A stretch of 64,000 nucleotides of DNA, from the NCBI RefSeq assembly GCF_004010195.1, contig NC_057719.1, positions 11,284,507 through 11,348,506 on the forward strand, given 5' to 3'. Of the stretch, positions 121 to 63,806 are shown piece after piece; the stretch's first letter is position 1; each line of letters starts with the position of its first letter. The notes under the pieces were generated by a model. The model was not told the origin of the DNA. It saw nothing but the letters and a program-made list of their open reading frames with translations, and searched no databases. The DNA comes from Chiloscyllium plagiosum (Eukaryota). Made by a program: the position numbers and the translations under genes.

Positions 121-216
121 TCATTCCTGATGAAGGGCTCCGGCCCGAAATGTCGATTTTCCTGTTCTTTGGATGCTGCCTGACCTGCTGGGCTTTTCCA
201 GCAACACACTCTCAAC
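121..216 (+). mobile_element. 96-bp Penelope-derived hammerhead-bearing insertion (family A)
   Basis: CTGATGA-A-GGGC-TCCG-GCCC-GAAA-TGTC at 127-154, then family tail GGATGCTGCCTGACCTGCTG..TTTTCCAGC. Perfect 12-bp TSD TCCTTCTATACA at 109-120 and 217-228. Confidence 0.85.
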
Positions 217-1188
217 TCCTTCTATACAGCACCCAACTAAGACGGGTTGCTGCCGAGGATAAGACTAAACTTCAATATTGTCACAATGCACTCCATGAGC
301 GTCCAATGGTACTACTCCATGAGATAAAATCCCTTCACGGGTTCAACCTTGTCATGATGTTTACAAATTAATTCCCAAGTCAGTCAGCATTTAACACATG
401 GTTGACAATTTGGACCTCACAGAGAATCAGGATACAAGAGTGCGCAGCACAAGAGAATCCAAAATACAAACCAATTTAAGAGACAATGCGCAAAACGCAG
501 CTCCATATTGCCACACACTTTGCAGAAAAGCTTGACTCTCATCTAACATTCAGCAAAATCTTTAGCAAAGCACTAATGAGATGATCATAAAACATTGACA
601 TTGAGAACCAAGAGTGAAGACTTCAGCTGCCTGAAGGAAACCGGCAATTCACACTGAAAATTAGTTTATTCTGTATTGGAAAATAGGTCCCACTTTGTAT
701 TTAGAATTTAAGAAAAAGACATTAATGCTCACTTCAGCAGCTTTGGTGTGCATGCTTATGATGTTGTTCACAAGGTCATGATTAAACTTCATAACAACTT
801 ATACGTGAGTTCAGCAATGTTTGGCTGGTTAATCTATAAGTATACTTTGAATCCTGATAAACACATAATTACTTTGCCCACAATGGATTAAGCTAGACCA
901 GGCTATTTATTAAAAATGTCCTGAAGGCTTTTACTGTCTGATTGTGATCACAGATTCTGAAATTTTCTCTCCATACCTACCATGGTAGATTTTCTGGATT
1001 ATAGTCTAATGATTGGTACCTATCTGAAGGACTGAGGATATTATTGAGGTAGGGCAAGGCTAGTGCAGTAGTAGTGTCACTAGAATAGCAATCCAGAGCA
1101 TCAGGCTAATGTTCTGGGGAATATGTTAGCTTTGACATTTACAATTTAAAGAAAGCAATAAAAATAGCAACCACATAACTACTGCTGA

Positions 1189-1865
1189 TGAGGATCTGAA
1201 ATCTGAATATAGGCTGTTATCAGGAACAACAATTTAATACATTCTCTTAGTAACATAGGCAGCAACAAAATGGCTTCTTATGCAAGTAACATGACAAAAT
1301 GGCTTCTAGGCTACAAATTGACAATTCTGCTTAAAAGCTGCATAAAATGGCTTTTATCCCTGCTAAAAGCTGCATTCCTGAATTAACCATAGTGTGCTTT
1401 AATAAAGATTAGCAGTCAATGCTTCCTTTACAGCATAGAAATAACTAGACTAGATAAGACATTACTAGCCATCCTAACTGACTTTGCAAATGCCAAAGTG
1501 GAGAAAATAGTTTCGGGAGATAAAGGTGCTTGGATGTGTAAAGCAAGGTTGGTTCCCGGGAACGATCATTGTGCTAAGTTGCTGTCAATAATGTTATTTT
1601 ATTAAATTTGATTGGTAATTGTTTGAATCTATTCTGTAACTATGGCTGTACTTCTTTTAAAAAAATACATAAAAATGTCTTTGTCTTAAGCCATATGTGC
1701 AGTTCCTCCTAGGGACATAGAAGTGTTTAACCTCTGTGTCGCTGGACAACCTGTGCTTGGACGTAAGATGAAGTGTGAAATCTTACAGAACCAGCCTGAA
1801 TTGCTAGTGTTTATTGACTGGTCGCGGAACAGAGAGGCACCACACCGCACCACCACCCTTCTACC

Positions 1866-1898
<33 letters not shown>

Positions 1899-1931
1899 CC
1901 TCCCCCTGCCACCATGGAGTCCAGATCTTCA
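1189..1931 (+). mobile_element. Solo LTR, ERV-like
   Basis: TGAGGATCTG...CAGATCTTCA imperfect 10-bp inverted termini (TG..CA). 4-bp TSD CTGA/CAGA. Splits a SINE cleanly. Three AAAATGGCTT motifs, ATTGG at ~1611, TATA-like CATAAAAA at ~1668. Confidence 0.7.
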
Positions 1932-2039
1932 CAGATTGTCATAAAAGTCCATCAAATTCTCTAATGTCTTTTAGGGAAAGAAATCTGTTGTCTTTACCTG
2001 GTCTTGCATTACACGACCCCAGCACAAAAACGATGTGAT

Positions 2040-2400
2040 TGATCTTATTTAGGTTTATAAAATCTTGAGGGACGTGGATAGGATAAATAGCCAAGGTCTT
2101 TTTCCCCAGGGTAGGGGAGTCCAAGGCTAGACCACATAGGCTTAAAGTGAGAGGTGAAAGATATAAAAGGGATCTCACAGGCAACATTTTCATGCAAACG
2201 GTGGTGTGTATATGGAATGAGCTACCAGAGGAAATACAATTACAACAGTTAAAAGGTATCTGAATGGGTATGTGAATAGGAAGGGTTTAGAGGGATATAT
2301 GCCAAATGCTGGCAAATGGGACTAGATTAATTTAGGATATCTGGTTGCCATAGATGAGTTGGACCGAAGGGTCTGTTTCCATGCTGTACATCTCTATGAC
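2040..2400 (+). mobile_element. CR1 (HER1-type) LINE 3' fragment
   Basis: RT C-terminal tail and 3' UTR GGACCGAAGGGTCTGTTTCCATGCTGTACATCTCTATGAC shared with many copies in the window. Confidence 0.9.
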
Positions 2401-2454
2401 ATTAAACTGTTCTTTAGACAATTAAGGATTGGAAATATGTGCTATTCTATGAAC

Positions 2455-2580: not shown

Positions 2581-3418
2581 ACTCCAACAGTGCGCTCACA
2601 AATCCAGATATTCTGCTTGAATTTGTCCTCAGATCTCTAGTCCCTAAAATATGCATGTGAGACCCAATCAGAAAGGCAGATGTATGGGCTACACTTAAAA
2701 CATGTTTGCTTGTGTCACAGAGAGCACTGCCACACTATATCAATCACTACTTCCAAAGCAACAATCATCAAAGTGCATGGCTGGTATCCCTCTGAGTATC
2801 ATGTGACAAATGGCACTGTGATCACATGAACAGACTTGTGCTCTTTTAACTTCAGGAAAGATATGAGTAATCTGTACCCATCAACTAAATGGCAGTCATT
2901 TATCGTCTTCTCCCTTCTTATGACCCTTTGGCAAGATTTTTCTTTTCTTCATTGCTGCTCAGACATTTCATGACTGAACTTGATGTTTGAGGAGAAAGTG
3001 AGGATGTTTGCCTTTTCAAATCGTTGCTTGAAAAATTCCTCAGAACAAAAGTATTATTCACACAGGGTGGGGAGAATAATTCACATGTAGAACTAGCAGA
3101 AACAGCTGAAAGCAAGTTAGTTCCTCACCTTCACCAAGAAAATTAGTCAGCAACTTGCATTCAACAGGATGGACAGCCATCCTCTAGTTTGAGTTCCTAT
3201 TTTGACTGCAAATGTTAACTCTGCTTCTCTCTCCAGAGATGCTCTGTGTCGCCAGCACATTCTATTTCTATATTGGGTAGTTTTGGTCGGGGGCAGCAAT
3301 GATCAAGGAAAGATTTCAGCATTGCTGAAAAAAGAAATGGCATGCTGTGGACACTTTTCACCTTGCACTCATCAAGATGGTAACAAGACTGTCAAATTTC
3401 AAAGGGAGCAACAACCTA

Positions 3419-4397: not shown

Positions 4398-5392
4398 CCG
4401 GTGTGGCGGTGTCTCAGCCCAGTCTCTCAGCAGCCCATGGCAGTGTCTCCGGTTGGCGTGACAGTGTCTCAGTCCAGTCTCTTCGTTCGCATGACGATGT
4501 CTCAGCCCGGTCTCTCCGTTCAGCGTGGCTGTGTCTTGGCCCGGTCTCTCCGTTCACTATGGCAGTGTCTCGGCCCGGTCTCTTTGCCCAGCATGGCAGT
4601 ACTTTGGCCCAGTCTCTCAGCAAGGCATGGTGGTGTCTTGGCCCAGTCTCCCTACCCGGTGTGTTGGTGTCTTGGCCCAGTCTCTCTGCCCAGCATGGCA
4701 GTCTCTCGGCCCAGTCTCTCAGTCCGGCGTGGTGGTGTCTTGGCCCAGTCTCCCTGCCCGGTGTGGCAGTCTCTTGGCCCAGTCTCCGGTGTGGCGGTGT
4801 CTTGGCCCAGTCTCCCTGCCCGGTGTGGCAGTGTCTTGGCCCAGTCTCCCTGCCCGGTGTGGCAGTCTCTTGGCCCAGTCTCTCAGTCCAACATGTCGGT
4901 ATTTCAGCCCAGTCTCTCTGCCCGGTGTGGTGATATCTTGGACCAGTCTCTCTCCCGGCATGTCATTACCTCTTCCCAGTCTCTCTGCCCGGTGTGGTGA
5001 TGTCTCGGCCTGGTCTCTCAGCGGCCCGTGGTGGTCTCTCCACCCAGCGTGGCGGTATCCCAGCCCATTCTCTCTGCCCGGTGTGGTGATGTCTCAGCCT
5101 GGTCTGTCTCCCGGCGTCTCGGTATCTCAGCCCAGTCTCTCTGCCCGGTGTGGTGATGTCTCGGCCTAGTCTCTCAGCGGCCCATGGTGGTCTCTCCACC
5201 CAGCATGACGGTATCCCAGCCCAGTCTCTCCGCTTGGCATGGCGCTGTAGCAGCCCAGTCTCTCTGTCCAGTACGGCAGGATCTCGGTGCAGTCTCTCTA
5301 GCCGGCGTGGCAATATCTCAGACCAGTCTCTCTACCCGGCATGGCCGCGTCTCAGCCCAATCTCTCTGCCTGGCATGGCAGCATCTCAGCGT
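4398..5392. repeat. GC-rich minisatellite, ~34-bp unit, about 29 diverged copies
   Basis: Unit approx GTGTGGCAGTGTCTTGGCCCAGTCTCCCTGCCCG (e.g. 4823-4856, next unit starts at 4857). Produces repetitive ORFs in several frames. Confidence 0.9.
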
Positions 5393-6847
5393 GCAAGTAG
5401 ATCCTGCCTGGGCATATTCCAGAGGCAGCAGGAAGTGATCAGGAAGTCGGCAACTTCCACAGCAGGTAGCATCGCTGTCCAATACAGGAAGAGCGAGGGA
5501 GGTCCTTGTTTTCTGCTGCAGCAGCGGCAGCAAAAACAGGCAGCTATGGTCTCCTGGAGATTGAGCTAAGTGGGGAACTCATCAAAGACTGTTAAACATT
5601 TAACTTTATTCTTTTATTCCTCTAGTTTATACCAAGAAGGAATTTAATGTTGACTATTACCTTTTTTTCTTTAGTTTTCTACTTATTCTATGAAAGTAAT
5701 GCTTAACTTACAGGTTCATGAGAAAATGGTGTTGATTGGTTGGCAAGTTTCTTGCAATTGGTCATGGCTTTACCACGGGGAATGAGCTTGAGAATTATTG
5801 CTCCTTACGCTTTAATTTAATTCAAAAAAGGTGAAAAGCCCAAGTCAGTGAGGGTTACTTTTGCCTGCAAAACACCCCAGGTCCCTTAAGGAAGTGGCCT
5901 GAGAAATAGTAGATACATCGGTGGTCACCTTCCAAGGTTCTTTCACCTCTGGAACTGTTCTACAGACTAGAGGATAGCTAATGTAACCCCACTATTTAAA
6001 AATGAGGTAGAAGGAATGGAGGGAATTGTAGACCAGTGAGTCTTGATATGAGTTGAATTGAATGATTTTGAATTGAATGCTTTATTGTCACTTGTATTCA
6101 ACAAACAAATCCAGTGAAAAGTGTAATTTGTCACCACACCACAACTCTGACATCAGTAGTGGGGAAGATGCGAGTCTATTATCAAAGATTTTAGAGGAGG
6201 GCACGTACTATTCTAGTTAATCTTTTAATATTTCTAACAGTTTTATCAAACACAGTTACCTGCTCATAGATCCGTCCTCATCTGTCAAATCCAGTGATTT
6301 GCTAACTTTCTCCAAAGTTTTCTGGGAAAGTGACTGGAATGTGCCATAACCAACAGAATGGTGAATTAAAGACCTCAAGAATGACAGCGGTAGAATCAGG
6401 CACTGTCAGCATGGATTTACAAAAGGGAAATCAGGCTTGACAAATCTGCTGGAATTCTTCATCAAGGATGCAGAATAGAGTTGATCAGGGGATGTGGTTT
6501 ATTTAGACTTTGAGAAGGCTTTTAACAAGGTCCTAAATAAGGGATTAATGTGTAAAATTAAAATGCATGGGATTGGGATTAGTGTGTTGAGATTGATAGA
6601 AAATTGGTTGGTAGACAGGAAATCAAGAGTAGCAATAAATGTGCCTTTTTCTGACTGGCAGGCAGTGACTAATGGAATACCACAGGGATCAATGCTAGGA
6701 CCCCAGCTACTCACAGTATATGTTAAAGATTTAGATGTAATATCTAAAAACTTGCAGATGACACAAAGCTGGATGAAAGGGTTCACTGTAAGGTGGATGC
6801 AGAAATGTTTCAGTGTAGTTTCGACAAATTGAGTGAGTGGACAGATA

Positions 6848-7911
6848 GAGTTATAGAGTCATAGAGCTGTACAGCACAGAAACAGACCCTGGGTTTAGAT
6901 TAGAATGGTGCTGGAAAAACACAGCAGGTCAGGCAGCATCTAAGGAGCAGGCCTGACCTGCTATGCTTTTCCAGCACCACTCTAATCTAGATTCTGATTT
7001 CCAGCATCTGCAGTCCTCACTTTTGCCCACAGAAACAGATCCTTCTGTCCAATTCATTCATGCCGACCAGATATACTATATAAATCTAGTCCAATTTGCC
7101 AGCATTTGGCCCAGACCCCCTAAACCCTTCCTTTTCATATACCCATCCAGATTTCTTTTACATATTGTACCAGCCGCCACCACTTCCTCTGGCTCCTCAT
7201 TCCATACAAGCACTCTAAGTTGTCACTTAGGTCCCTTTTAAATCTTCCCCTTCTCACCTTAAACTTATGTCCTCTAGTTTTGGACACCCCCACCCCAGGG
7301 AAAAGTCTACTTACTTTATCCATGCCCCTCAGGATTTTATAAACCTCCATAAGGTCACCCCTCAACCTCCTATGCTCCAGGGAAAATAGCCCCAGCCTAT
7401 TCAGCCTCTCCCTATAGCTCAAATCCTTCAATCCTGGCAACATCCTTGTAAATCATTTCTGAACCCTTTCAATGTTTCACAACATCCTTCTTGTAGCAGA
7501 AAGACCAGACTTGCATGCAGTGTTCTAGAAGTGGCCTAGCCAATGTCCTGTACAGCTGCAACATGAACTCCCATATACTCAATATACTGACCAATAAAGG
7601 CAAGTATACTAAATGCCTTCTTCACTATCCTACCTACCTGAGGTAATCTTTTTCACTGTCCGCTACACCTCCAATTTTGGTATCATCTGCAAACTTACTA
7701 ACTATACCTCCTAGGTTCACGTCCAAATCATTTACATGAATGACGAAAAGGAGTGGACCCAGCACCAATCCTTGTGGCACTCCACTGGTCACAGATGTCC
7801 AGTCTGAAAAGCAACCCTCCACCACCACCCTCTGTCTTTGTCCTTCGAGCTAGTTCTGTATTCAAGTGGCTAGTTCTCCCTGTATTCCAAGTGACCTAAC
7901 TTTGCTAACCA
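6848..7911 (-). mobile_element. Younger CR1 nested in older CR1
   Basis: [26 protein letters not shown] and RLRGDLMEVYKI motifs; CTATGA tail; internal deletion near 7633. Confidence 0.9.
6891..7027 (+). mobile_element. PLE-derived fold-back insertion (family A) lacking the HHR core
   Basis: Inverted arms TAGATTAGAATGGTGCTGGAAAAACACAGCAGGTCAGGC / GCCTGACCTGCTATGCTTTTCCAGCACCACTCTAATCTA. 16-bp TSD CACAGAAACAGA(C/T)CCT at 6875-6890 and 7028-7043. Confidence 0.85.
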
Positions 7912-9240
7912 GATGGCAGATGCAGTATAATTTAGATAAATGATTTGAATTTAAATTGAGAGAGGGGAATGCTCAACAAGACCTGGATGCCCTTGTACAC
8001 AAGTCACTGAAAGTTAGCATGCGAGTGCAGCAGCAAGTTAAGACAGAACGCTGTAAGTTGGCCTTCATAGCAAGAGGATTCAAGTACAGGAACAAGGATG
8101 TCCTGCAGCAAATATCCATTGCATTGGTGAGGCCCTAGAATACCATGTGCAGTTTTGGTCTTCTTATCTGAGCAAGGATGTTTTTGCTACAGAGGCACAG
8201 CAGCGAATATTTATGAAACTCATTCCTGGGGTGTCAGCACTGATGCCTAAGGAGAAATGGAGTCAATTAGGATTATATTCACCAGAGTTTAGAAGAATGA
8301 GGAGTATCTCTTAGAAACCTATAAATTTCTAACAGGACTAGACCTGATGGCTGAGCAGCCCAAAACTAGGGGTCATAAGTGGTAAACCTTTTAGGACCGA
8401 GAGGAGGAGAAATTTCTTGTCCGTTACCACAGAATGTGGGCGAGGCCAAAACATTTTCAAAAAGAAGATAAATATAGCTGTCATGGCCACAGGGATCAAG
8501 GGATGTGGGGGATGGCAGGTTTATGGTATTGAGCTCAAAGATCAGCCGTGGTCATATTGAATGGCGGAGCAGGCTCAAAGGGTCAAATGGCCTCCTCCTC
8601 CTCTTATGGTGTTGGGGGGTGGGGGTGGGGGGGGGGGTGGAGTCCAGAGCAAGTTTACAAGAATGATCCCACGGATGAATGGCTTGTCATATGCACAGCA
8701 GTTGAGGACTCTGTATCTGTACTCAATGGAGTTTAGAAGGGTGAGGGGGAGACCTCATTGAAATTTGCAGAATACTGAGAGACCTGGATAGAATGGAAAT
8801 GAAGATGTTTCCACTAGTAGGAAAGACTCGGACCTGAGAGCACAGCTCAGAGTGAAGGGATGACTCTTTAGAATTGAGGCAAGGAGGAATCCTTCAGTCA
8901 GAGGGTGGTGAATCTGTGAGACTCTTTGCCACAGACGGCGGTGAAGACCAAGTCATTGAGAGTATTTAAGACAAAGATAGATAGGTTCTTGATTGGTAAG
9001 AAGTTAAGGGTTATGGGGAGAAGGCAAGAGAATGGAGTTGCAAAACATATCAGCCGGATTAAATGGCAGAGCAGACATGATGGCATCCACTAATATCATT
9101 TATTGTATCTGTTGCTCCCGATGCGGTCTCCTCTACATTGGGGAGACTGGGCACCTCCTAGCAAAGCGCTTTAGGGAACATCTCCGAGACACCCGCACCA
9201 ATCAACCACACCGCCCCGTGGCCCAACATTTCAACTCCCC

Positions 9241-9818
9241 NNNNNNNNNNNNNNNNNNNNNNNNNNNNNNNNNNNNNNNNNNNNNNNNNNNNNNNNNNNN
9301 NNNNNNNNNNNNNNNNNNNNNNNNNNNNNNNNNNNNNNNNNNNNNNNNNNNNNNNNNNNNNNNNNNNNNNNNNNNNNNNNNNNNNNNNNNNNNNNNNNNN
9401 NNNNNNNNNNNNNNNNNNNNNNNNNNNNNNNNNNNNNNNNNNNNNNNNNNNNNNNNNNNNNNNNNNNNNNNNNNNNNNNNNNNNNNNNNNNNNNNNNNNN
9501 NNNNNNNNNNNNNNNNNNNNNNNNNNNNNNNNNNNNNNNNNNNNNNNNNNNNNNNNNNNNNNNNNNNNNNNNNNNNNNNNNNNNNNNNNNNNNNNNNNNN
9601 NNNNNNNNNNNNNNNNNNNNNNNNNNNNNNNNNNNNNNNNNNNNNNNNNNNNNNNNNNNNNNNNNNNNNNNNNNNNNNNNNNNNNNNNNNNNNNNNNNNN
9701 NNNNNNNNNNNNNNNNNNNNNNNNNNNNNNNNNNNNNNNNNNNNNNNNNNNNNNNNNNNNNNNNNNNNNNNNNNNNNNNNNNNNNNNNNNNNNNNNNNNN
9801 NNNNNNNNNNNNNNNNNN
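9241..9818. other. Assembly gap (578 N)
   Basis: Run of n characters. Confidence 1.
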
Positions 9819-9846
9819 CTCTCCACGCTCCAGGCTCACTGCCTTT

Positions 9847-9882
9847 ATTCCTGATGAAGGGCTTTTGCCCGAAACGTCGATT
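9847..9882 (+). ncRNA. Minimal type-I hammerhead ribozyme motif, core intact
   Basis: CTGATGA(9851-57)-A-GGGC-TTTT-GCCC-GAAA-CGTC. Predicted cleavage after C9878. Stem III reduced to the palindrome ACGT; stem I weak. Confidence 0.75.
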
Positions 9883-10039
9883 TCGCTGCCTGTTGGATGC
9901 TGCCTGAACTGCTGTGCTCTTCCAGCACCACTAATCCAGAATCTGGTTTCCAGCATCTGCAGTCATTGTTTTTATCTATCATGATGGGCTGAATGGCCTG
10001 ATTCTGCTTCTATATCTAATGGTCTACCCTCTATGTTTC

Positions 10040-10859: not shown

Positions 10860-11305
10860 AGTGACTATTTGATAAAGAAAATCTTACATTTGCATGGCAC
10901 CGTTCACTTGGTGATGGTTGAGAGGCAAATTTTGGCCAGAAGACTGGGGAGAACATGAAACAAAAGCAAGAATTGCTGGAGAAACTCAGCAGGTCCGGCA
11001 GCATCTGTGGAGAGAGAAAGCAGGGGTAACGTTTCAGGTACAGTGACTCCCCTTCAGAACACTGGTCCTGAAATGTTAACTTTGCTTTCTCTTCACAGAC
11101 GCTGCCAGACCCACTGAGTTTCTCCAGTAATTCTGTTTCTGTTTCAGATTTCTGTAATGTGCAGTTCTTTTTTTTTGCTGGGGACAACATCCTGCTCTTG
11201 TTTGTAAGGTAACATTGACACAAGTTAAACTCGCAAACAGACCCTCAACTGAAAAGTTTATCCAAAAGACAGCACCTCTAACAATGCAGTACTGCATTCA
11301 ACCAT
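10860..11305 (-). mobile_element. Deu-domain SINE relic (SacSINE1/AmnSINE1-like)
   Basis: Reverse complement of TGCAGTACTG..GAGGTGCTGTCTTTTGGAT..AAGAGCAGG..TGGCCAAAATTT, as in 16400-16875. Confidence 0.6.
10957..11177 (+). mobile_element. PLE-derived fold-back insertion (family B)
   Basis: Inverted arms (GAATTGCTGGAGAAACTCAGCAGGTCCGGCAGCATCTGTG / CACAGACGCTGCCAGACCCACTGAGTTTCTCCAGTAATTC). 13-bp TSD CTGGGGA(G/C)AACAT at 10944-10956 and 11178-11190. Confidence 0.85.
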
Positions 11306-11809: not shown

Positions 11810-12420
11810 TACTGGGCATGTGCTTTACTGGCAACATTTATTGCCCATCCCTAATTTCCCCAGAGAAGATGGTGGTGACCTTCCTTCTTGAACCTCTGCA
11901 GTCCATGGGGTGTAAGGGCACCTCCTAGTGCTTTGGAAAGGGAGTTCCAGGATTTTGACCTGGGGACAATGAGGAACTGGCTGATATAACCCCTCATTCT
12001 GGATGAAGGGTTTTGCCCGAAACATCGATTTCCCTGCTCCTCGATGCTGCCTGACCTGCTCTGCTTTTCCAGCACTACTCTAATCTTGACTCTAATTTCC
12101 AGCATCTGCAGTACCCACTTTTGTGAGATATAATCCCATGTCAGGATGTTAGTTGGCTCTGAGGGAAACATGCAGGAGGTGGTGTTCCTATGCATCTCTT
12201 CTTGCCCTTCCAGGTGGTACAGATCACAGGGTTGCAGGGTGCTGTTAAAGGAGGCTTGGTGTGTTACTGCAGCACACTTTGTAGGTGTGTATCGAGTGGT
12301 GGAGGTAATGAATATTTAAGGTGTTGTATTTAAATGTGTCACTGTCCTGGATGGTGTTGAGCTTCCCGATCGTTATTGGAGCTGCACTCAACAAGGCATT
12401 CCATCATACTCCTTAGCTGG
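11810..12420 (-). mobile_element. CR1-group LINE, second family, 3' fragment
   Basis: SKSWNSL..GLQRFKKEGHHHLL C-terminus and GGGATGGGCAATAAATG tail. Confidence 0.8.
11990..12126 (+). mobile_element. PLE-derived HHR-bearing insertion (family A)
   Basis: Decayed core TGGATGAAGGGTTTTGCCCGAAACATC plus family tail. 7-bp TSD GATATAA at 11983-89 and 12127-33. Confidence 0.8.
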
Positions 12421-14294: not shown

Positions 14295-15080
14295 AAAATG
14301 CTGACCAAAGTGCTTCTCTTAAACTCATCAGGACAAATGGAATAATGCCAAATTTTGAATGATTACAGCAATTTACACTGTAAGATAAAAGGAGTAAGCA
14401 AGTCTATTCTGATTGGCTCTGGCACTGGATGGAGAAAGCGACAGAGAACTACAGGGGGAAATGTTTCTCAAACAAAAACAGTTCTGAGTAAGGATCACTG
14501 AACCTGAAACATTAACTCTGATTTCTCTTCACAGATGCTACCAGACCTGCTAGACTTTTCCAGCAACCTCTGTTTTTGTTTGAGAAACATTTATCCCTAT
14601 AGTTCTCTGAGTTCTGAGTAAGGGTCACTTGACCCGAAACATAAACATTGATTTCTCTTCACAGATGCTGTCAGACCTGCTGAACTTTTCCAGCAAATTC
14701 TGTTTCTGTTTCTGATTTCCGGCATCCGCAATTCTTTCAGTTTTTAAATGTTCCTCAATCCTGGGTAAATTAAAACATGGCACAAAGTTTGAACATATTC
14801 CTTAAGCCTAAACATATAATGTTTCTAGCAAGCATGAATAAGTCATGTTGCAAGCTCAACCGATTATCTTAAATTGGCTGTTAATACAGCCATTAGCACA
14901 CTCTGGGTTGTTCAGTGAGTGTTGTCCAATCATAGAATCAAATCTGAAAATTGGGTTTCTAACTGATCAATACCCATTTCTGCTGTAATAAAAATTCTTC
15001 TCATCATTTGATATGCCATTTGTCCTCATGAGTACAAGAGATAAGAATTTGGCTACATGCCTCTCTTGTCAGCAATATGC
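14295..15080. mobile_element. Old PLE-like family E element with inverted ends, hosting a younger insertion
   Basis: Minus-strand TTTGTCCTGATGAG near 14325-14338 mirrors TTTGTCCTCATGAG near 15019-15032. Body homologous to 10500-10845. Confidence 0.5.
14472..14745 (+). mobile_element. Tandem dimer of PLE family B hammerhead unit
   Basis: Two ~130-bp units, each GTT-CTGAGTA-AGG(A/G)TCACT..ACC(T/C)GAAAC, cores at 14484 and 14614. 13-bp TSD AAATGTT(T/C)CTCAA at 14459-71 and 14746-58. Confidence 0.8.
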
Positions 15081-16399
15081 AAAATTATGGGTATGTGCCA
15101 GGGCCTAATAGGCTGGAACCTAATTAAGGAATTCAAACATGGAAAGTGGATACTCAGGAGTGAGATACATGCTCAAATATAATTGAGGAGCTCAGCTGGC
15201 ATAAGAAATGACTGTGGAGTTGAACTTTCTGGATCAGATTACTGCAATAACTCTTGTTTTGTAAGCATTCTTTTGTATGACATATGTAATTGATAATAAG
15301 GATTTTTTCCAGCATTTTGGCTTGCAGTTCAATGTTAGTAGCAGACCTACTGTCTTGTATTATCCCAGTACAATGATGTTCACACTGTCATTATTGATCA
15401 GGAAAAGAAATTATGAAAAGAGATAATTTGACACTGATTGTTAGGAATTTAATGGCCAGCATATAATAACACTGCTGAAAAGAAAATGCATGAGGTAGTT
15501 TGTATTAATCATTAATACACAATGACAAACCTTTAACAACTGCTTTTAACACATAGTACAGAACAGGTCTCAGGAGAATGAACCAACTTTATCATCAAAG
15601 GGTTTGACAGAGTAGGCATAGAGAAAATCATTTCATCTATGAGGGAGACCGAAATTACAGGTCTGAAATATAATAAATCTAATAAAGGAATTCAATAGTA
15701 ACTTCTTCGTCCAGAATTTGAAACTATCACAAAGAATAGGTGAAATAATGAGCATCAATGTTTAAAAGGAAATTAGAAAAGCATGACAGAGAAATAAACA
15801 GAAGGATTCGAGGACAGAGTGATTAAGAGGAATGAGAGAATGTTCTTGTGGAAATAACACTGGCATGGATCGGTTGGACTAATTCTGTTTTGTAGATTCA
15901 ATGTGGACCAGGTTAAAGTTGCCGCTCACCCTTCTTTGCCATTCTAATCAGCGTTCTCCAGGTCAAAAGCTAAATGCTGTTAGGCCAAAGGGTCTGTTTC
16001 TGTGCTGTATGACTCAATATCTATGCTGGAAATGTAAAAACGAATCAACAGACTGAGAGAGAGAATTATTGTTTCAGGTCAATGGCCCTTCTGATGAAAG
16101 TTGATTTATTTCTCTCCAGGTGTGCTGCCGAACCTCCTGGGTATTTCCTGCAATTTCTGTTGCTATGTCATCTTGGGGCCAGGTGATGGTGTTAATAGAC
16201 CATCCCCAACACTTCTCACGATCTATATACTATCCATGGAGTTTTCTGGTCAGTGTGCACAATGTCATTGCAAAGGGAGTGCTGGTGTCCTTGTGCACAG
16301 ATATCATTTGGCATAGCAGTTGGTTCACTGGCACAAGTACAGTCAGTATCGAGCAGTAATGTTCCACATGTCTTGAGCAGTAGCCCATCAGGATTACAG

Positions 16400-18116: not shown

Positions 18117-18260
18117 AAAAACCATTGTGCGGAAGAGTAATACCGGACTCAAAGTGCTAACGCTTTCTCTCGGCACAGATGCTCCCAGACCTGCTGTGTT
18201 TCTCCACTGTTCTCGGTGTTTGTTTCAGATTTCCAGAATCCGCAGAATTTTGCTTTTATT
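18117..18260 (+). mobile_element. Decayed PLE-derived short insertion
   Basis: CAGATGCTCCCAGACCTGCTG..TTTCAGATTTCCAGAATCCGCAG..TTGCTTTTATT tail. 12-bp TSD ACAG(A/T)TTAAAAT at 18105-16 and 18261-72. Confidence 0.7.
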
Positions 18261-44595: not shown

Positions 44596-44680
44596 AGGTA
44601 AAAACAATGACTGCAGATGCTGGAAACCAGATTCTGGATTAGTGGTGCTGAAAGAGCACAGCAGTTCAGGCAGCATCCAA
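44596..44680 (-). mobile_element. PLE family A tail (no HHR core)
   Basis: Reverse complement nearly identical to 9894-9974. Confidence 0.8.
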
Positions 44681-46870: not shown

Positions 46871-47070
46871 CTCAAAATTAAACAAGGTATTGTGGATGCT
46901 GGAGAGCTGAAACACAAAAACAGAAATTGTTGGAGAACCGCAGGTCTGACAGCATCTGGGGAATAGAGAAACAGAGATAATGTTTCAAAATGTTAAGTCT
47001 TCTTTTTTTCTTTCCACACGTGCTACCAGGCCTGCTGAGTTTCTCCAGCAATTTCTGTTTGTGTGAGAGC
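46871..47070. mobile_element. PLE-derived fold-back insertion (family B), decayed
   Basis: AAACAGAAATTGTTGGAGAA / TTCTCCAGCAATTTCTGTTT arms; possible 7-bp TSD TTACATT at 46864-70 and 47071-77. Confidence 0.75.
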
Positions 47071-52291: not shown

Positions 52292-52403
52292 GATAAAAGC
52301 AAACTGACAAAGGGTCAGTTAGACTCGAAACGTCAGCTCTTTTCTCTCCTTACAGATGCTGCCAGACCTGCTGAGATTTTCCAGCATTTTCTCTTTTCGT
52401 TTC
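52292..52403 (+). mobile_element. 112-bp PLE-derived HHR-bearing insertion (family B, A8 variant)
   Basis: TGACAA-A-GGGTC-AGTTA-GACTC-GAAA-CGTC-AGCT. Perfect 14-bp TSD AGACATTAATGCAG at 52278-91 and 52404-17. Confidence 0.88.
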
Positions 52404-52729
52404 AGACATTAATGCAGCTTCTGCATTTATCAAGAAACTACTGGTTTATTAGAAATAAATCAATCCTAATCACAGATAAACAAATGATTGAAAGAGGTGC
52501 TCTTTTGTTTTTTGAGTCTTTGTGATCTCTAACTTTCATTCCAAGTCCACTCAGTTCTTTATTGAAGACGCATGGCAATTGTCACACCAATTATTCACTG
52601 CCTGAGTTAGAATCAGCAATTTACAAGCACATGGTGAGCAAAAATAGTAAGCTATCTTCTAATTCTTTGTGATGTCTCTGCAATGACAGGATGTTGTCTT
52701 TTTATAGAGCTTTATTACATTCTTCTTTT

Positions 52730-53444
52730 AAATAAAAGCAAATTACTACGGATGCTGGAATCTGAAATCAAAAGAGAAAATGCCGGAAAATCTCAGTAGA
52801 TCTGGCAGCATCTGTAAGGAGAGAAAAGAGCTGACGTTTCGTGTCTAACTGATCCTTTGTCAAAGCTAAAAAAAGGGAGAAAGAGGGAGGTATTTATACT
52901 AGGCTGAGAAAAGGTGAGTCATGGCTCCAGAAGCAAAGGTAGCAATAAAGAGGTGACAATGACAGTGCATAGAGAGATTATAGGGAAATTAGGAGCTGTG
53001 AATGACCAAGGCTGAAGCCAATGCTATGGGGCAAAAATATGTGGGGAATGGGTGAAGCAGAGGCAAAATGGAAAACAGGGGAGAAGAGCAGCAAAAGAGG
53101 AAGAGGAAAGGAAAAAGGTGATGAGAGAGTGGGGAGCGAGAGAAAGAGAGACAATCAAGAAATAAGAGGTACAGGACAGTGAAAAAAATATTTTAAAAAT
53201 GAAATAAAATTACGGAGCAGAATGAAAACAGAGGAGTCGAGATGGGATAATCATGTGAAGTTGTTGAATTCAATGTTGAGACCGGCAGGCTGTAACGTGC
53301 TTAGTCGGAAGATGAGATGCTGTTCCTCCAGTTTGCATTGAGCTTCACTGGAACATTGCAGCAGGCCAAGGACAGACATGTGGGCATGGGAGCAGGAGTG
53401 TGTGTTGAAGTGGCAAGCCACGGGAAGGTCCAGGACCTAATTGT
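52730..53444 (-). mobile_element. Penelope-like element 3' fragment (GIY-YIG C-terminus, pyrimidine-rich UTR, HHR terminus)
   Basis: Minus strand DLPVACHFNTHSCSHAHMSVLGLLQCSSEAQCKLEEQHLIFRLSTLQPAGLNIEFNNF. HHR at 52829-52867. Perfect 11-bp TSD ATTCTTCTTTT at 52719-29 and 53445-55. Confidence 0.9.
52829..52867 (-). ncRNA. Hammerhead motif with U3:A8 core variant (stem II decayed in this copy)
   Basis: Minus strand AGCT-TTGACAA-A-GGATC-AGTTA-GACAC-GAAA-CGTC-AGCT. Confidence 0.6.
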
Positions 53445-53504
53445 ATTCTTCTTTTGTTCAATTAACTTCGGTCTCTTCATTAAAAGTACATTCGAAGCCT
53501 CGAA

Positions 53505-53583
53505 AGTGCTCGAAACGTCCACTCTCCTGCTCTATGGATGTTGCCTGACCAGCTGTGCTTTTCTAGCACCACACTTTTCAACT
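53505..53583 (+). mobile_element. PLE family A tail fragment
   Basis: GCTCGAAACGTCCACTCTCCTGCTC..GGATGTTGCCTGACCAGCTGTGCTTTTC. Confidence 0.7.
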
Positions 53584-53584
53584 A

Positions 53585-54325
53585 GGTGTATAACAGCCTG
53601 GGTACAGCAACTGCTCTGCCCAGGACCAGAAGAAACTACAGAGGGTTGTGTGCACAGTCCTCACCATGATGGAAGCCAACCTTCCATCCATGGACTCCAT
53701 TTACACACCCTGTTCCTGTGGAAAGGCTGCCAACATCACTAAAGAGCCATCACACCTTGGCAATGCACTCCTATAACCTCTTTCATCAGGCAGAAGATAC
53801 AGAAGTTTGACCACTTGCACCAGCAGGTTCAAGAACAGCTTCTCGCTGGCCATTATTAAACTGATGAATGGACTCTCTAACTTTAAATAATGCTTACTTT
53901 GCTAATGCAAGGTTTGTGAAGGTTTGTAGCTCAGGTTGAGGTTTAGGGTGTAGGTTTGCTCGCTGAGCTGTAGGTTTGATATCCAGACGTTTCGTTATCT
54001 GGCTAGGTAACATAATATCTTATATAGATATCTTATATAGATATAAATAGAAAGCAGGAGACAACAGCTTCGCTTCACTTGGAGGTCGCCACTGATGATT
54101 TTACCTAGCCAGGTCATGAAACGTCTGGATGTCAAACCTACAGCTCAGCGAGCAAACCTACACCCTATTACTTTGCTAATGTTGATCTTGCCTTGCGCAT
54201 GCCTCTATCCAAGTTTTTTATTCATCCTATGATCTATATAGGAGCTTGATTACTATGATCTGTTTGTATTGTTTGTAAACAAAACTTTTCACGGTACTTA
54301 GGTACATAAAACAATAAATCAAACA
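53585..54325 (+). mobile_element. Rex1/Babar 3' fragment, split by a PLE
   Basis: GCITAWxSNCSAQDQKKLQRVVCT..GRRYRSLTTCTSRFKNSF, frameshifted; ACAATAAATCAAA tail. Confidence 0.85.
53908..54167. mobile_element. PLE-derived fold-back insertion (family D) with long-stem-II hammerhead
   Basis: Arms ~53946-54011 and ~54101-54167. CCA-CTGATGA-T-TTTACCT-AGCC-AGGTCAT-GAAA-CGTC-TGG at 54089-54128. Perfect 14-bp TSD TTACTTTGCTAATG at 53894-53907 and 54168-54181. Confidence 0.88.
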
Positions 54326-56357: not shown

Positions 56358-58372
56358 CACATTTACACTGGTGTTCTCTGTGGGATGTTAATGTGAGCAA
56401 ATTAGCCACTTACATATTGTGACAATATTTAAAGAGATAATCATGGGCGTGAAGTACTTTGCAGTGTAGGCTTCCTAATTTTTTATGCAGCTTCCATTTA
56501 TACAATACAGAGGCGTTGGTGCTAAATTAAAAGCTGTGATTTGTGTATTTCCGATGGAAGGAAAAGGATGGGGAAAAGAAAGTGACGTCAAAGAGGGAGG
56601 AAAATTAAATAAAAAGACTTTTACCCCTCAAAGATGACATATACCTGACAAATCACCTTAACATGAAGGAAAGGTGCTGCTCAACTTTCTGCATTGTTAG
56701 CAGTGCCATCACCAGGTTGCTGCAGAAAGTGCAGCTCCTGCTGATCAACTGTATCAAGTTCACATTAACTTTGATTTTCTAGTGCTCTATTTGGCTTCAT
56801 CATAACAGTACAATCTATTAGTCAACTTAAAAGTTCCCAGTATGTACAAGATGTCTAATTTACTGGCAATCAAATACAAACTGTTTCTCAGCACGTCTGC
56901 AGTGCCACTACTGATTGTTCCACAACCTTAAGTAAAGCATTATTGTAAATCTCAGGAATGGAAACTATACTTAATTTCCTAAAAGAAATTAATAAAGCAG
57001 ACAAAATGACATGAGCTCTTGACTACTAGAAATGAGTTACAGGCTAAAATCTACTTGAAGTTTCAGATTAATTAGCACCTCATCCACAAATATTCCACTC
57101 CCTCCATCACAGGCGACCAGTAAGCTTAACATCTGTGGTGGGTAAGTTACTTGAGAATATTCTGAGGGATAAGATATACATGCAATTGGAAAAGACAGGG
57201 TTTGATTAGCGCATGGCTTTGTGAGTGGGAGATCATGTCTCACAAATTTGTTAGAGTTTTTTGATGAAGTGACTAAGAAGGTTGACGAAGGCAGGGCTGT
57301 AGACATAGTCTATGTAGATTTCAGTAAAGCCTTTCATAAGGTTCTACATGGTGAGCTGCTCTGGAAGGTTAGATGACATGGAATCTAAGGCGAGCTGGTA
57401 AATTGAGTACAAAGTTGGCTTGTTGGGAGGAAGCAGAGAGTAATAGTGGAATGTTGCTTGTCAGACTGGAAGCCTGTGACTAGCGGAGTGCCTCAGGGGG
57501 TTGGTGCTGGGCCCATTACTGTTTGCTATCTAAATCATTGATTTGGGTGAGAATGTACAAGGCATGATTAGCAAGTTTGCTGATGACACTAAAATTGGCG
57601 GTATCCTTGGCAGCGAGGAAAGTTATCAGAAATTGCAGCAGGATCTTGATCAGCTGGGGAAGTTGACCTAAAAATGGTAAATGGAGTTTAATGTAGATAA
57701 GTGTGAGGTCTTGCATTTTGGAAAGTCAAATCAGGTAGGAGTTTTATGGTGAATGGTAGGGCCTTAAGAAGTGTAGTGGAACAGAGGGATCTTGGAGTTC
57801 ATGGTTCTCTGAAAGTGGAGTCACAGGTAGACAGGGCAGTGAAGAAGGCTTTTGGCGTACTGGCCTTCATGAGTCAGGGCATTGAGTATAGAAGTTGGGA
57901 AGTTATGTTGCAGTTATACTGGACATTGGCGAGGCCACACTTGGAGTATTGTATTCAGTTTTGGTCACCTTGCTATCGGAAGGATGTTATTAAACTGCAG
58001 AATGCAGAAGAAATTTACAAGGATGTTGTCAGGACTCAATGGTCTGAGTTATAGGGAGAGGTTAGACAACCAGGACTTTTTTTCTTTAGAATATAGGAGA
58101 CTGAGAGGCATATAAGATCATGATAGGCATGGATAGGTTGAATGCACTCAGTCTTTTTCCCAGTGTTGAGGAATTGAGGACTAGAGGGCATCAGTTTAAG
58201 GTTAAAGGGGAAAGATTAAAACTGAACCTGAGGGGCAACCTTTTTTTAAACACAGAGGGTGGTATGCATATGGAATGAGCTGTCAGCGGAAGTGGTTGAG
58301 GCGGGTATATTAACAATATTTAAAAGGAACTTGGACAAATATATGGATAGGAAAGGATTAGAAAGATATGGG

Positions 58373-58541
58373 GAGAAAGTGAGGTCTGCAGATGCTGGAG
58401 ATCAGAGCTGAAAATGTGTTGCTGGAAAAGCGCAGCAGGTCAGGCAGCATCCTGAAGAAGGGCTTATGCCCGAAACGTCGATTCTCCTGTTTCCTGGATG
58501 CTGCCTGGCCTGCTGCGCTTTTCCAGCAACACATTTTCAGC
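58373..58541. mobile_element. Young PLE family A fold-back insertion with an intact HHR in the loop
   Basis: 46-bp arms 58407-58452 and 58496-58541 (1 mismatch). Perfect 15-bp TSD TTAGAAAGATATGGG at 58358-72 and 58542-56. Confidence 0.92.
58449..58482 (+). ncRNA. Minimal type-I hammerhead ribozyme motif, core intact
   Basis: ATC-CTGAAGA-A-GGGC-TTAT-GCCC-GAAA-CGTC-GAT. Stem I ATC/GAT; predicted cleavage after C58479. Confidence 0.78.
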
Positions 58542-58875: not shown

Positions 58876-58879
58876 AAAT

Positions 58880-59053
58880 TAAACAAAGCATTGTGAATGC
58901 AGGAGATCCAAAACAAAAACAGAGATTGGTGGAGAACCTCCACAGGTCTGTCAGCATCTGTGGAGAGAAAGCAGAGTTAACATCTCGAGTCCGGTGACTC
59001 TTCATCAGGTCTCGATGAGTTTGCTGAATTTTGCCAGCAATTTCTGTTCTTGT
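58880..59053 (-). mobile_element. PLE family B unit with partial fold-back
   Basis: Minus strand CCTGATGAAGAGTCACCGGACTCGAGATGTTAACTCTG (HHR-like) plus family tail. Confidence 0.75.
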
Positions 59054-59958
59054 GTAAGTTTTTGGTAAATGTCTTCAGCACCCCCTTTAAGACCTTGACC
59101 TCTTTCCTAAAGTGCAGTGCCCAGATCTGAACAGAATCTTTCTGCTGAGGCTGGATTATGTCTTTTGCCCAGATAATTATCTCTTAAGAAATTCTCCACT
59201 ACACAACTTGAGGACGGCTGGCCTGATGTTGCTGGATTTATTTGATTCTTTCTTTTTAAAGATTTGCAATTCTCCAGCACTCTGGATCCAGCCTACATGA
59301 AAAGACAATTGGGAGATCGTGACATGAGCCTCCTCAATTTCCATCCTTAACTTCCTTGCTAACGTGGCATGCATCTAAACTGGACCAGGTGCCTTTTCTA
59401 CTTTGAGGAATGCCAACTTTTTAGGACTACCTCTTAATTTTATCCTGTCCAACTTTGCATAGCACCATTTTCTTTTCTAGCAAAGACAGATGCAAAGTAC
59501 ACATTTAGCAGCACTATGCCCTCTGCTTCCACAAGATGATCTCCATTTTATTCCCTAATCAGCTCTGTCCATCCTTCCTCTCAGTGTTCTTTTCTTATGA
59601 GCAGAAATTAGTCTGGAAAGAATGCACCTCAAAAGTATTGGACAGATTTCAATGAAACTTGATATCAGTAGGCTATGATACAAAGAAGAACTGTTTGCTT
59701 TTTCGCAAAGATTTGGATCAGGGTGCTGGAATCTTTTAATATTGGGAAATAGTCTGAATGGAGATTTCTAGAGTGCTGTGGGTTACTATGGAGTGTTGTG
59801 AATTGTCACAGTTGCTGTGATGGAATTTGTTGCAACTATCAAAACACTACGGTGGGAGAGTTCAAAGCTAGGGGGGATATTTTTAAGGCAACAGGGGAAA
59901 GGTTTAAGAAGGACATGAGGGAAAACCACAAAATGATGTATAGACAGGTTAAATGAAT

Positions 59959-61010: not shown

Positions 61011-61321
61011 TTCTACTTCATGGAAAGGTGTCAACTCTGTATCTGAAGCATCTACTCTTTGAAGCCCACCCTTTGTTCAGTTGCTGTTTTGCCCACTAAT
61101 TTTAGAATCCAATCCAGCTGAGTCAAATCCTTTCGATAATCACTGAAGTTAGCCCTTCTCTAGGGAAGCGTTTTTAAGTTGGATTGCTCCTTGCCCTTTT
61201 CAATGTCTTCTCTAAATCTAACAAAGTTATGATCACTATTTCCCAATTTATTCCACAAACCTGAACCGTTTGGCTCATTTCATTTTGAAAAACTAGATTT
61301 AGCACTGCTTTCTTGAAATAT

Positions 61322-61967
61322 TATTGCTCTGGACTAGGCCAAATCCCCTCAAAATATATCAAGGAAATAGCCCAGATCCTAACTATTTATTTTATTTAAA
61401 GACGAGTATAAAGACTTGAGTTCCAATTGGTCCACTACTGGGTTTTAAACAAAACAAAACTTTATTCTTACAACACAGTTAAAGCACAAACAAAACAGAA
61501 GAATTAGCATAACTTTAACTCAGTTGAAACACTTATTAGATATTACTTAAGTACTAATCACCAACTGCTTTAATATAGGAGCACCCCATAAACACACCTT
61601 GGCAAATTCAGCTCATGATTATGTTCATGTGCTGTTTTCTTTCCAGTTGAGGAGAAAGGAACACCGAAACAAACCATCTAGCCACACACAGAGAGAGAAA
61701 ACTCAAGCTTTTTGCTGCAGCAGAGAGACAGCTGCATCTATCAGCTTCAACAGTCAACTCCAAACACCAACTGAAAGCAAAACCAAAACTCTGGAACCGT
61801 GTGAACCTGTCTCCACCCATTCGTGCCTCGTTGATCTAATGTTTTAAAAAAACACCTAGGGAGCTCAAAGCTGTTTACCCATTGCTTCTGAAGTTGACAT
61901 TCCACCACAACTGTGGCAAGATAAACAGCACAGAACAAATCTCTCTTAACGGCAAAGTACCATCACA
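61322..61967. mobile_element. Solo LTR (same family as 45047-46104)
   Basis: Shared CCCCTCAAAATATAT, CACACCTTGGCAAA and AAAACCAAAACTCTGG blocks; ends CATCACA. Perfect 4-bp TSD ATAT at 61318-21 and 61968-71. Confidence 0.78.
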
Positions 61968-62067
61968 ATATACAAAACAAGACATTTCTCTTGTACATCT
62001 TTCAGGAATTTGTTCTCTGCATTGCCATTTACTATTCCAGTCTATATTAAAATAAATTTTGCTTAAC

Positions 62068-62440
62068 AGCTGCGGCTCAGTTGGTCACATCCTTGCATCA
62101 TCATCTGATTCAAGTCCCCGCTCAGGCTTAGCATAGAAATCAAGATTAAAGATCCAGCGCAATACTGAGGAATTACTGTCTTTTGGGTAAGACATTAAAT
62201 GGAGACCACATATGCCTAATTGGTTAGACTCAAAAAGATCCCATGGCATCATTTTGAAGGACAGAGGAGTTGTTTGTGGTGTTATGGTCAACATTCATCC
62301 CTCACTCAGCATCATAAAACAGATTATCTGCTCATTAGCACATTGTTCTTTGTGGGAATATGATGTGTTGAAATTGGCTGATGCATTTTCTACATTAATA
62401 AAGTGGATATACTTCAAAGGTTTTGCAATGGCTATAATAT
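62068..62440 (+). mobile_element. Deu-domain SINE
   Basis: CAGCTGCGGCTCAGTTGGT head, AAAAGATCCCATGGCA, AAACAGATTATCTG core. Confidence 0.75.
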
Positions 62441-63743
62441 GCATTGAGACATGGCTTTGGTTAAGTGGATATTTTTATTCACTTCTTAAAATTATTGCAT
62501 TTCATTTCTTGCAACTTTCTGAAATTCGCTGGAGAATGCACTCGTTTTTCTCCAAAGGACATTTATCCTCTTTGGGTTATAATATTAATTTGATCATTAG
62601 TGCCATCTACTGCACTCTTATTTCTTGAGAGTACTTTGTATTCAAGAACAGTGAGTTCCAAATTTGCCTCTTCTTTGAGTCAAATCTCTTATTGCTACTA
62701 TGTCATAGTCCCAAGTGGCAAATAATGCAGCGCACCAACTCATTTACCTTGCTACATGCATTTATGTATATATACCCCAACCCCTCCAGTTCCTGCAAAA
62801 TTCTACAATGCTATGGTGTTATTTGTCTTTCCCAGTCTTCTCTCTAATGTTCAGCCTTTAGGATTATTTATTCATTTTGTGAGTTATACTGCTAATGTGC
62901 ACTAGTATAAAGTGTGCAGTCCAAAAAATGGCACCAACGCTCAATATTAGACCCAATGTTCCACAGTACACTAAAGCCATGTTGTTTGACAGTCCCACAA
63001 GGGGACTGTCTTGAAAACAGAGTGCATCTCAATATTGTGCAAAGTCAGGTTTTAAAAATACCAAGCGTATATTTTAAAGTTTCATACAGAATCTGGTTTA
63101 GAACACAAGGTTCTAATGAAAAGATGTTCTGAGTATACAATCAAGCAGTTGGCTGATCCTGCACAACCTGGGGGACGCACAGCTAGTAATATAACCCCAT
63201 TTTGCCATTCGGTTGGCACAAATCTCTGTCCGAGACTGCATCAGTAATGCAAAGCAACTACAAGAGCCAAATAAAGCTTTAAAAACAAAGGCCATTATTC
63301 AGATTTTGTATCTTCTTTTCACCCTCTGGTCAACTTCCAAAGTCTTAATTCCTTTGTGGTTATAGACCTATGGAGTGTGAATGCTTTACACATTAGCATG
63401 AAATGCGGGCCTGAAGCCTGGGGCTAGATTTTCAAAGCTCCTACTGTACTGACAAGTAAGTTGAAATATGATGAAGGGATTTGCATACTGTGTAATACAT
63501 GGTGGTTTAACACAGGCAATGACTGCTGATGAGGACTGACTGTGCTGGGAATAAGCAGCTTGAGACTACAGAGATAGAAACAAACGTTTCTTGTAGTTTA
63601 GCTGTTCTCAGAAATTAATAAGGGAACATAGTGGGATAGTTGTGTTTTAATTGTCTATTCTCTCCAATATTCATAGTTATTTGTTACTTAAGAAAGCAAT
63701 TCAACATCTAAATAATGAATCATCTTAATTAGCATTGTAATAA

Positions 63744-63806
63744 ACATTTAGGTCACAACTTTGCGACGAAAAGTTGTGACCTAAATGTTCTTATTCTGCC
63801 AAAATA
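63744..63806. mobile_element. 63-bp minimal fold-back insertion, probably PLE/HHR-derived
   Basis: Perfect 20-bp arms AACATTTAGGTCACAACTTT / AAAGTTGTGACCTAAATGTT (63743-62, 63770-89), loop GCGACGA. 10-bp TSD ATTGTAATAA at 63734-43 and 63807-16. Confidence 0.75.

Follow-up and report, generated by a model that had tools for sequence, protein, structure and literature searches.

Solo minimal type I hammerhead ribozymes (min-HHRs) have been described for metazoan Penelope-like elements (PLEs) as thousands of motifs, which fall into many consensus families per genome, are mostly single and have been ascribed to truncated PLEs (Cervera and De la Pena 2014, PMC4209133). The DNA analysed here, a stretch of 64,000 nucleotides from the shark Chiloscyllium plagiosum (contig NC_057719.1, positions 11,284,507 to 11,348,506; hereafter the window), contains 29 mostly short insertions, which are almost certainly end pieces of endonuclease-positive (EN+) PLEs. 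Their hammerhead resembles the published motifs in a short stem I, an unpaired base before stem II, a G-C pair at the base of stem II and a palindromic region at positions 15-16. PLE end fragments with minimal hammerheads are already published, and it is their density in the window (9%, in several families) that is high. The text of PMC4209133, as far as it was covered, names no shark and maps no insertion ends, target-site duplications (TSDs) or accumulation of 5' ends; comparisons with the other cited papers likewise refer to the portions of each that were covered.

Insertions of EN+ PLEs are known to display 5' truncation, partial tandems, adjacent inverted pseudo-long terminal repeats (pLTRs) and other inverted copies, a tail of 30-40 bp and a TSD (PMC3846280; PMC8557442; PMC2377424; for the tail also PMC11167929), and all of these are present in the window. 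A typical unit of only 90-270 bp, with 5' ends that gather at the hammerhead's front edge, is not described in the portions of these papers covered. Poseidon of Anolis carolinensis, PAc (Frangieh et al. 2024, PMC11167929), was studied in vitro: reverse transcription begins at two internal RNA sites that bound the tail, both DNA strands are extended, and hammerhead cleavage is not needed. The shark insertions share with PAc the two discrete 3' ends bounding the tail, the hammerhead just upstream and the absence of anything ending at the cut site, while differing in type (Poseidon versus the probable Neptune/Nematis type of families A and C); the RNA 5' end and tiny run-off insertions are not addressed in the portions of the PAc paper covered. 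Animal non-LTR retrozymes (Cervera and De la Pena 2020, PMC7229834; Li et al. 2026, 10.64898/2026.07.22.740005) are also non-coding, with a type I hammerhead, kinship to pLTRs and larger TSDs, and dispersed monomers of them exist. They are built of tandem 150-450 bp units with mostly canonical motifs and give rise to circular RNA, whereas the copies described here are solo or head-to-head and their motifs are minimal. Searches of the open-licence literature (main texts) found neither a description of this shark family nor one of run-off PLE stubs, although the supplements of Cervera and De la Pena 2014 and of the 2026 preprint may list chondrichthyan motifs. The mechanistic interest of such insertions lies in how PLEs define their RNA, in the role of the hammerhead and in the origin of pLTRs and inverted copies.

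Insertions and target-site duplications

The set of loci was obtained with a profile hidden Markov model built on 17 segments of the window, a BLAST search with five seeds and reading by eye. The 29 loci (Table 1) amount to 6,283 bp, including a 578-N gap, or 9.0% of the non-N window, and 25 of them are only 53-274 bp long; in a reversed-window decoy, the best match of the profile reached only E 0.63. At least five families with distinct stems and tails were recognised: A, with several subfamilies, B (32390), the C group, D (53908) and E (31709). Copies that are not inverted lie more often on the plus strand (13 plus versus 5 minus, by our own count). Exact scans of viral and of metagenome contigs for the tail motif gave 0 loci each.

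Direct repeats abutting the edges of the insertion, interpreted as TSDs, were found at 18 of the 29 loci. Fifteen are exact (eight of 10-15 bp, two of 8 bp and five of 7 bp), and three contain one mismatch (13, 9 and 9 bp). With flanks of 25x25 nt, the chance rate is 0.3% for repeats of at least 10 bp and 3.8% for those of at least 7 bp, the latter rising to 46% in a wide 95x95 search; for this reason, nine TSDs are graded as solid and nine as plausible. The original prediction, made from the sequence without database searches, had counted more than 20 tiny units, about 17 of them with TSDs, and at least five families of the same architecture, and all of this agrees with the inventory. The five TSDs which it gave as examples (121-216, 32390-32491, 52292-52403, 53908-54167 and 58373-58541) are exact to the base, with lengths of 12, 10, 14, 14 and 15 bp.

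Hammerhead motif

The motif at the front of the insertions is, judged by its sequence, a minimal type I hammerhead and fits the published description (PMC4209133). It consists of the core CUGANGA...GAAA-N-U-H with stems I and II, and the palindromic positions 15-16 read ACGT or AGCT, often decayed at CpG. A strict descriptor matched five times, four times in elements and once apparently by chance, versus 0 in each of ten Markov controls; with one mismatch allowed, 13 matches were obtained versus 0-5 in the controls. The descriptor matches at 28922, 34993 and 3043 were rejected as chance, having no homology in the tail. The covariation set comprised 16 aligned motifs, the most decayed being left out. 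In stems I and II, 80% of cells are paired, compared with 60% after shuffling (0 of 500, a count which is not a probability, the motifs being related sequences) and 13-44% after sliding, and all eight pairs of the two stems change on both sides.

Comparison with the Rfam hammerhead models, which had been recommended as a check, gave no match at gathering score anywhere in the window. Folding of nine single motifs or modules gave z values from -1.8 to +1.1, none significant, and no stable monomer hammerhead fold; this is expected of minimal motifs, and folding is not used here as support. No pile of RNA ends at the cleavage site was seen in one poly-A single-cell run, which could hardly show such a pile.

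A hammerhead had been predicted for most units. The motif and its covarying stems are indeed there, but all core letters are kept in only six of the 20 motifs parsed, at six of the 29 loci; 11 loci have no motif or one too decayed, and the units 6887-7027 and 44596-44680 are without a hammerhead altogether. The elements are abundant in the window, but to call them a ribozyme reservoir, as was suggested, goes too far, as the core is damaged or missing at 23 of the 29 loci, and no cleavage was seen for published min-HHR monomers (PMC4209133).

Link to autonomous Penelope-like elements

GIY-YIG endonuclease sequence precedes the motif in four copies, 9084-9979, 18548-18809 (minus strand), 19791-20316 and 52730-53444 (minus strand), all of which gave tblastn matches. 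Three of them had been noticed earlier, and the copy at 18548-18809 is an addition; the copy that had been placed at 19775 is real and begins at 19791, and the GIY-YIG sequence at 53250-53435, also real, belongs to the minus strand and to a 715-bp copy with its own hammerhead and TSD. The fragment 9086-9238 was recognised by Pfam (E 3.5e-6), while two other fragments submitted had no Pfam match. It is 92% identical to a protein (P0001) with reverse transcriptase (RT) and GIY-YIG annotated in Chiloscyllium punctatum, whose best relatives are proteins of other sharks and rays; the RT is present in P0001 as well as in its relatives P0016 and P0019 (89-91%). The link at 9084 spans the 578-base assembly gap and rests on an 8-bp TSD. 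This gap (9241-9818) sits within the longest PLE copy of the window.

No RT-bearing PLE copy was found within the window, and families B, D and E have no protein there. In the nearest proteins, an RT is followed by a CX4CxxC linker and GIY-YIG. A CX2-5CxxC linker between RT and EN marks the Neptune and Nematis clades (PMC8557442); by regular expression it is present in P0001 and in 111 of 131 homologues fetched, the window copies ending before it. The Cys linker of the nearest homologues suggests a Neptune/Nematis type for families A and C.

Two short copies have a close long partner: 52292-52403 is 93% identical to 52730-53444, and 44596-44680 is 98% identical to 9084-9979. The remaining 14 of the 16 short segments compared are 71-89% identical to any long copy in the window, values which are uninformative on private lineages. 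The stem II variant GAGC/GCTC of the long copy 19791 is found again in 27155, and its 3' half only in 53495. The PLE origin with a minimal hammerhead, as claimed originally, is upheld by the GIY-YIG-linked copies and the stem covariation.

5' ends of the insertions

Positions marked + or - are counted from the C of the hammerhead CUGA (+1). The 5' ends were taken from 23 segments bounded by a TSD or a junction, read by eye to about +/-3 nt, and six loci without a defined boundary were left out. Fifteen ends fall between -10 and +5, three between +20 and +36, two at -25 and -50, and three belong to long copies. None of the 23 lies at the cut site (about +29), the nearest being +22 and +36, which argues that cleaved RNA is not the template and agrees with the anole in vitro data (PMC11167929).

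Random truncation alone is rejected by simulation. An exponential null with the fitted mean never reached the cluster of 15 of 23 in 200,000 trials, and one with a mean of 40 reached it in 0.4%; when the three least certain ends were set aside (12 of 20), a 16-nt cluster of this kind arose in 0.1% of 200,000 trials under a tuned exponential-plus-long null. The view of the copies as extreme 5' truncations of autonomous PLEs is favoured in so far as they are end fragments, but their 5' ends are discrete and not continuous. A plot of the ends had been proposed as a test for independent lineages. Discrete recurrent ends do occur in the window, yet they do not separate the models.

Four sequencing runs were mapped on 52600-53500, of which X1 and X9 are DNA-type runs of two organisms and X21 is RNA. 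Summed contig depth was about 9-39 in the unique flank, whereas the 550-nt body had a median of 11,000 (X1) and 37,000 (X9) with no steady decay. The bin holding the core exceeded the median of 18 upstream bins 3.9-fold in X1 and 2.4-fold in X9, and the tail reached up to 31 and 13 times the body median, respectively. At single places in X1, the depth was 36k at -4, 14k at -20, 10k at -47 and 11k at -94. At position 52867 (-4), inverted copies are joined in X1 and X9 (one entry each among the junctions listed, 3 contigs in all), and 18 RNA reads of X21 have a loose end there (among the entries listed); the TATAAATA box starts 31 nt upstream of this position. The spacing from a TATA box to the RNA start is usually 30-31 nt. 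TATA or TATA-like boxes also precede families D and A, and in a rotifer PLE a TATA box with an initiator (Inr) lies in the pLTR (PMC3846280).

Several points weigh against an RNA start at -4 as the origin of these ends. Contig depth cannot be read as copy number; the tail bins are raised by sister families (loose ends at 52815), and other bins are lowered where the sequence diverges. In the RNA run (282 reads, single-cell poly-A), both strands of the module are covered about equally and neither starts nor ends pile up, so that the reads resemble passive transcription from the host. Stem I, too, has its first base at -4, and a polypyrimidine+AG acceptor-like site lies at -4/-3, so that structure or splicing could set the end. 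The TATA argument comes from one family C copy and only three joint or loose-end entries among those listed, and in the spacer 14590-14613, of another subfamily, there is no clear TATA at the same distance (the spacer is cut at -25). The promoter of Drosophila Penelope is internal and TATA-less (PMC2377424). Furthermore, very short copies are harder to detect, the 5' positions were set by eye, and eight of the 23 ends lie elsewhere.

Two other observations were made on the mapped copies. The flank junction of 52730-53444 and the 3' end of 52292-52403 are present in contigs of both organisms sequenced, which means that these two insertions predate the split of these organisms and are not recent. 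The X21 reads pile on one strand over the 3' untranslated region (UTR) of 52730-53444, with A-rich loose ends at 53188-53200, a pattern that would fit internal priming by oligo-dT on antisense copies carried within host transcripts.

3' ends and inverted copies

The 3' ends are paired: +90 or +127 to +131 in family A, and +100/101 or +132/134 in the family C group. The 31-41 nt between them correspond to the PLE tail. Eleven of the 29 loci are head-to-head, and in nine of these the arms reach unequally far, mostly by about the length of the tail (two were assessed by eye, and the other two loci are too decayed). The only partial tandem among the 29 loci is 14472-14745, with two motifs 130 nt apart and a mismatch in each core. 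At the head-to-head junction of family D (54020-54050), an AT-rich filler and a duplicated 13-mer directly before the TATA box were observed.

Within the tail, conservation is highest in a block (173-202, with 28 further matches) that runs from an ATG at about +46 and reads MLPDLLxFSS in families A and C. Its differences by codon position are 36/26/52 over 29 copies, and it may be the start of a PLE open reading frame; in a rotifer PLE, the first 12-22 codons lie in the pLTR and tail. This open frame had no match among the N-termini of the 131 homologous proteins. Acceptor-like polypyrimidine+CAG stretches occur in family C tails at 52815-52800 and 52775-52760 (minus strand), and also at 14650-14730. 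One is located just before the tail ATG and one at the short 3' end, and stubs residing in introns could be exonised.

Possible mechanism and its alternatives

With slightly better than even confidence, we propose that the short copies are run-off complementary DNA (cDNA) copies of the 5' end of the element RNA, made by internally primed reverse transcription. Transcription would begin at a point set by a TATA box in the terminal repeat, a few bases ahead of the hammerhead, so that only about 100 and about 135 nt would separate the internal priming sites from the RNA 5' end and a tiny cDNA ending at the RNA start might result. If both nicked strands were primed, one per site, head-to-head copies with one long and one short arm would be formed, while long copies may derive from priming at the downstream repeat of a tandem transcript. 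Stubs would lose the upstream TATA box and are likely dead ends. A broader proposal, to which we give a little less than an even chance, is that PLEs routinely make such strong-stop-like cDNA, that run-off stubs and not random truncations are the bulk of shark PLE copies, and that pLTR tandems arise when a short cDNA jumps template. If this is true, the stubs preserve in the genome where the PLE RNA begins and where both priming sites lie. The sharp 5' boundary, which falls 31 nt downstream of a TATA box and ahead of the ribozyme instead of at its cut site, yields a testable prediction.

It is rather unlikely that the copies are ordinary 5' truncations from the downstream repeat, with no RNA start involved, their ends being set by a pause or template-switch hot spot at the folded hammerhead, a stem I fold-back or a splice acceptor. 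The position of -4 in stem I and the polypyrimidine+AG ahead of the motif in family C would fit such a hot spot, as would an intron of D. virilis which ends at the 5' end of helix I (PMC4209133) and the spread of the ends over 16 nt rather than at one base. However, a polymerase travelling along the RNA from 3' to 5' would first reach the stems at about +33, and yet the ends lie beyond the entire motif; a spliced RNA would be joined behind the AG (-2), but the A at -4 is part of all three junction entries listed.

Rather unlikely is a mobilisation of the short copies in trans from truncated non-autonomous sources that retain the TATA box, such as 52730-53444 or 53908-54167, in the manner of processed copies of small-RNA genes, some subfamilies being SINE-like (SINE, short interspersed nuclear element). 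Truncated copies with a TATA box do occur in the window, the same 5' pile-up is predicted, families B, D and E and some subfamilies of A and C have no GIY-YIG partner in the window, and in the rotifer pLTR sequence is enough for mobilisation in trans (PMC3846280). On the other hand, the close partners, where found, are GIY-YIG-bearing, the internal promoter is only hypothetical here, and the anole protein required RNA that continues about 55 nt past the RT start sites (PMC11167929), a stretch missing from copies that stop at the tail. The two short copies that match GIY-YIG-bearing long copies at 93-98% speak against a SINE-like class with private lineages, one of the options raised originally, although such a class may exist among the families with no long partner in the window. 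A SINE-type head derived from RNA polymerase III genes (tRNA, 5S, 7SL) gave no Rfam match at gathering score in the window, a weak test for decayed heads; the head of the copies is the hammerhead.

The other class suggested originally, retrozyme-like elements spreading through hammerhead-cut, circularised RNA, is very improbable. The two head-to-tail motifs of 14472-14745 are reminiscent of it, and according to the 2026 preprint vertebrate retrozymes descend from pLTRs and occur in one chondrichthyan (10.64898/2026.07.22.740005). Against it, 28 of the 29 loci are not head-to-tail repeats and no arrays were found, no 5' end lies at the cut site, the whole motif is kept at the front with no cut-to-cut units, the motifs are minimal and not canonical, and both cores of the tandem carry a mismatch. 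Formation of the head-to-head and short copies by self-priming on an antisense template (Arkhipova et al. 2013, PMC3846280) would suit the many palindromic junctions but is extremely improbable, since in vitro the anole element works from sense RNA and starts at two internal sites that agree with the tail seen in the genome (PMC11167929) and the model alone does not predict ends at -4.

Distribution of the features

Table 1. PLE-derived insertions and associated features in the window
Feature	Position	Strand	Details
Family A stub	121-216	+	Starts 6 nt before core (127); core intact; short 3' end (+90); 12-bp TSD
Family C-group stub, old, decayed	3195-3275	+	Approximate boundaries
Family A head-to-head, without hammerhead	6887-7027	.	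Both arms tail only; 12-bp TSD
Family A long copy, 5'-truncated	9084-9979	+	GIY-YIG 9086-9238; 578-N gap; intact hammerhead (core 9851); long 3' end (+129); 8-bp TSD
Family C-group head-to-head	10951-11177	.	Inverted arm to -3; 7-bp TSD
Family A stub	11990-12126	+	Start -10; core damaged; long 3' end (+127); 7-bp TSD
Family C-group partial tandem	14472-14745	+	Two hammerhead+tail units head to tail; cores 14484/14614; ends +101/+132; 13-bp TSD with one mismatch
Old head-to-head copy	16050-16168	.	Internal deletion
Old stub	17349-17486	+	Starts at hammerhead edge; weak 9-bp TSD with one mismatch
Family C-group stub plus short scrap of inverted tail	18117-18265	+	7-bp TSD
Family A copy with GIY-YIG remnant (18732-18809)	18548-18809	-	Internal deletion; TATA-like TATTTAT about 41 nt before core (18633); TSD not found
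Family A long copy, 5'-truncated	19791-20316	+	GIY-YIG C-terminus (two stops), 3' UTR and hammerhead (core 20186); long 3' end (+131); 8-bp TSD
Old stub	26042-26153	+	Start about +20; 9-bp TSD with one mismatch
Family A head-to-head	27155-27358	.	Stem II variant as in 19791 copy; TSD not found
Family A stub	28295-28412	+	Core damaged; TSD not found
Family E head-to-head	31709-31940	.	AGCT palindrome; cores 31817 (+, intact) and 31790 (-); 10-bp TSD
Family C-group stub, old	32262-32348	-	
Family B stub	32390-32491	+	Core 32401 intact; short end (+91); 10-bp TSD
Family A head-to-head	34352-34556	.	Arms joined inside core; 7-bp TSD
Family C-group copy, old, longer	36089-36400	-	Pyrimidine-rich upstream part; uncertain boundaries
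Family A tail-only stub	44596-44680	-	Start +43; 98% identity to 9084-9979
Family C-group head-to-head	46871-47070	.	Joint about +22; 7-bp TSD
Family C stub	52292-52403	+	Inverted tail scrap of 12 nt followed by hammerhead from +1; short end (+100); 14-bp TSD; 93% identity to end of 52730-53444
Family C long copy, 5'-truncated	52730-53444	-	GIY-YIG C-terminus (about 53430-53257); 3' UTR; TATA box; hammerhead (core 52863); long end (+134); 11-bp TSD
TATAAATA box in 52730-53444	52891-52898	-	Starts (first T) 31 nt upstream of 52867
Position -4, first base of stem I	52867	-	Other genomic copies are joined here in sequencing runs; RNA start predicted
Family A stub	53495-53580	+	Starts within stem II; short end
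Family D head-to-head	53908-54167	.	AT-rich filler; sense arm from TATAAATA box about 50 nt before intact core (54092); 14-bp TSD
Family A head-to-head	58373-58541	.	Inverted arm with long end; sense arm from about -2, intact core (58452), short end (+90); 15-bp TSD
Family C-group head-to-head	58876-59058	-	Core 59008; TSD not found
Decayed palindromic head-to-head junction, hammerhead-like	63743-63795	.	Weakest member

Other repeats are also present in the window. A tandem array with a 34-bp period and 156-bp repeats (families D1 and D18 of the repeat listing) occupies 4409-5420. A second, longer dispersed repeat, which we presume to be a CR1-type long interspersed nuclear element (LINE), has many copies (18809-19772, 25279-25972, 43383-44088, 45292-45760, 57543-58372 and others), and several PLE copies are located in or beside it. 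A pair of 258-bp dispersed repeats, 22939-23196 and 53634-53891, is inverted and 81% identical, and the family D insertion begins 16 bp past the end of the second arm. One open stretch of about 50 codons on the plus strand (30896-31048) has a protein-like composition and could be a host exon.

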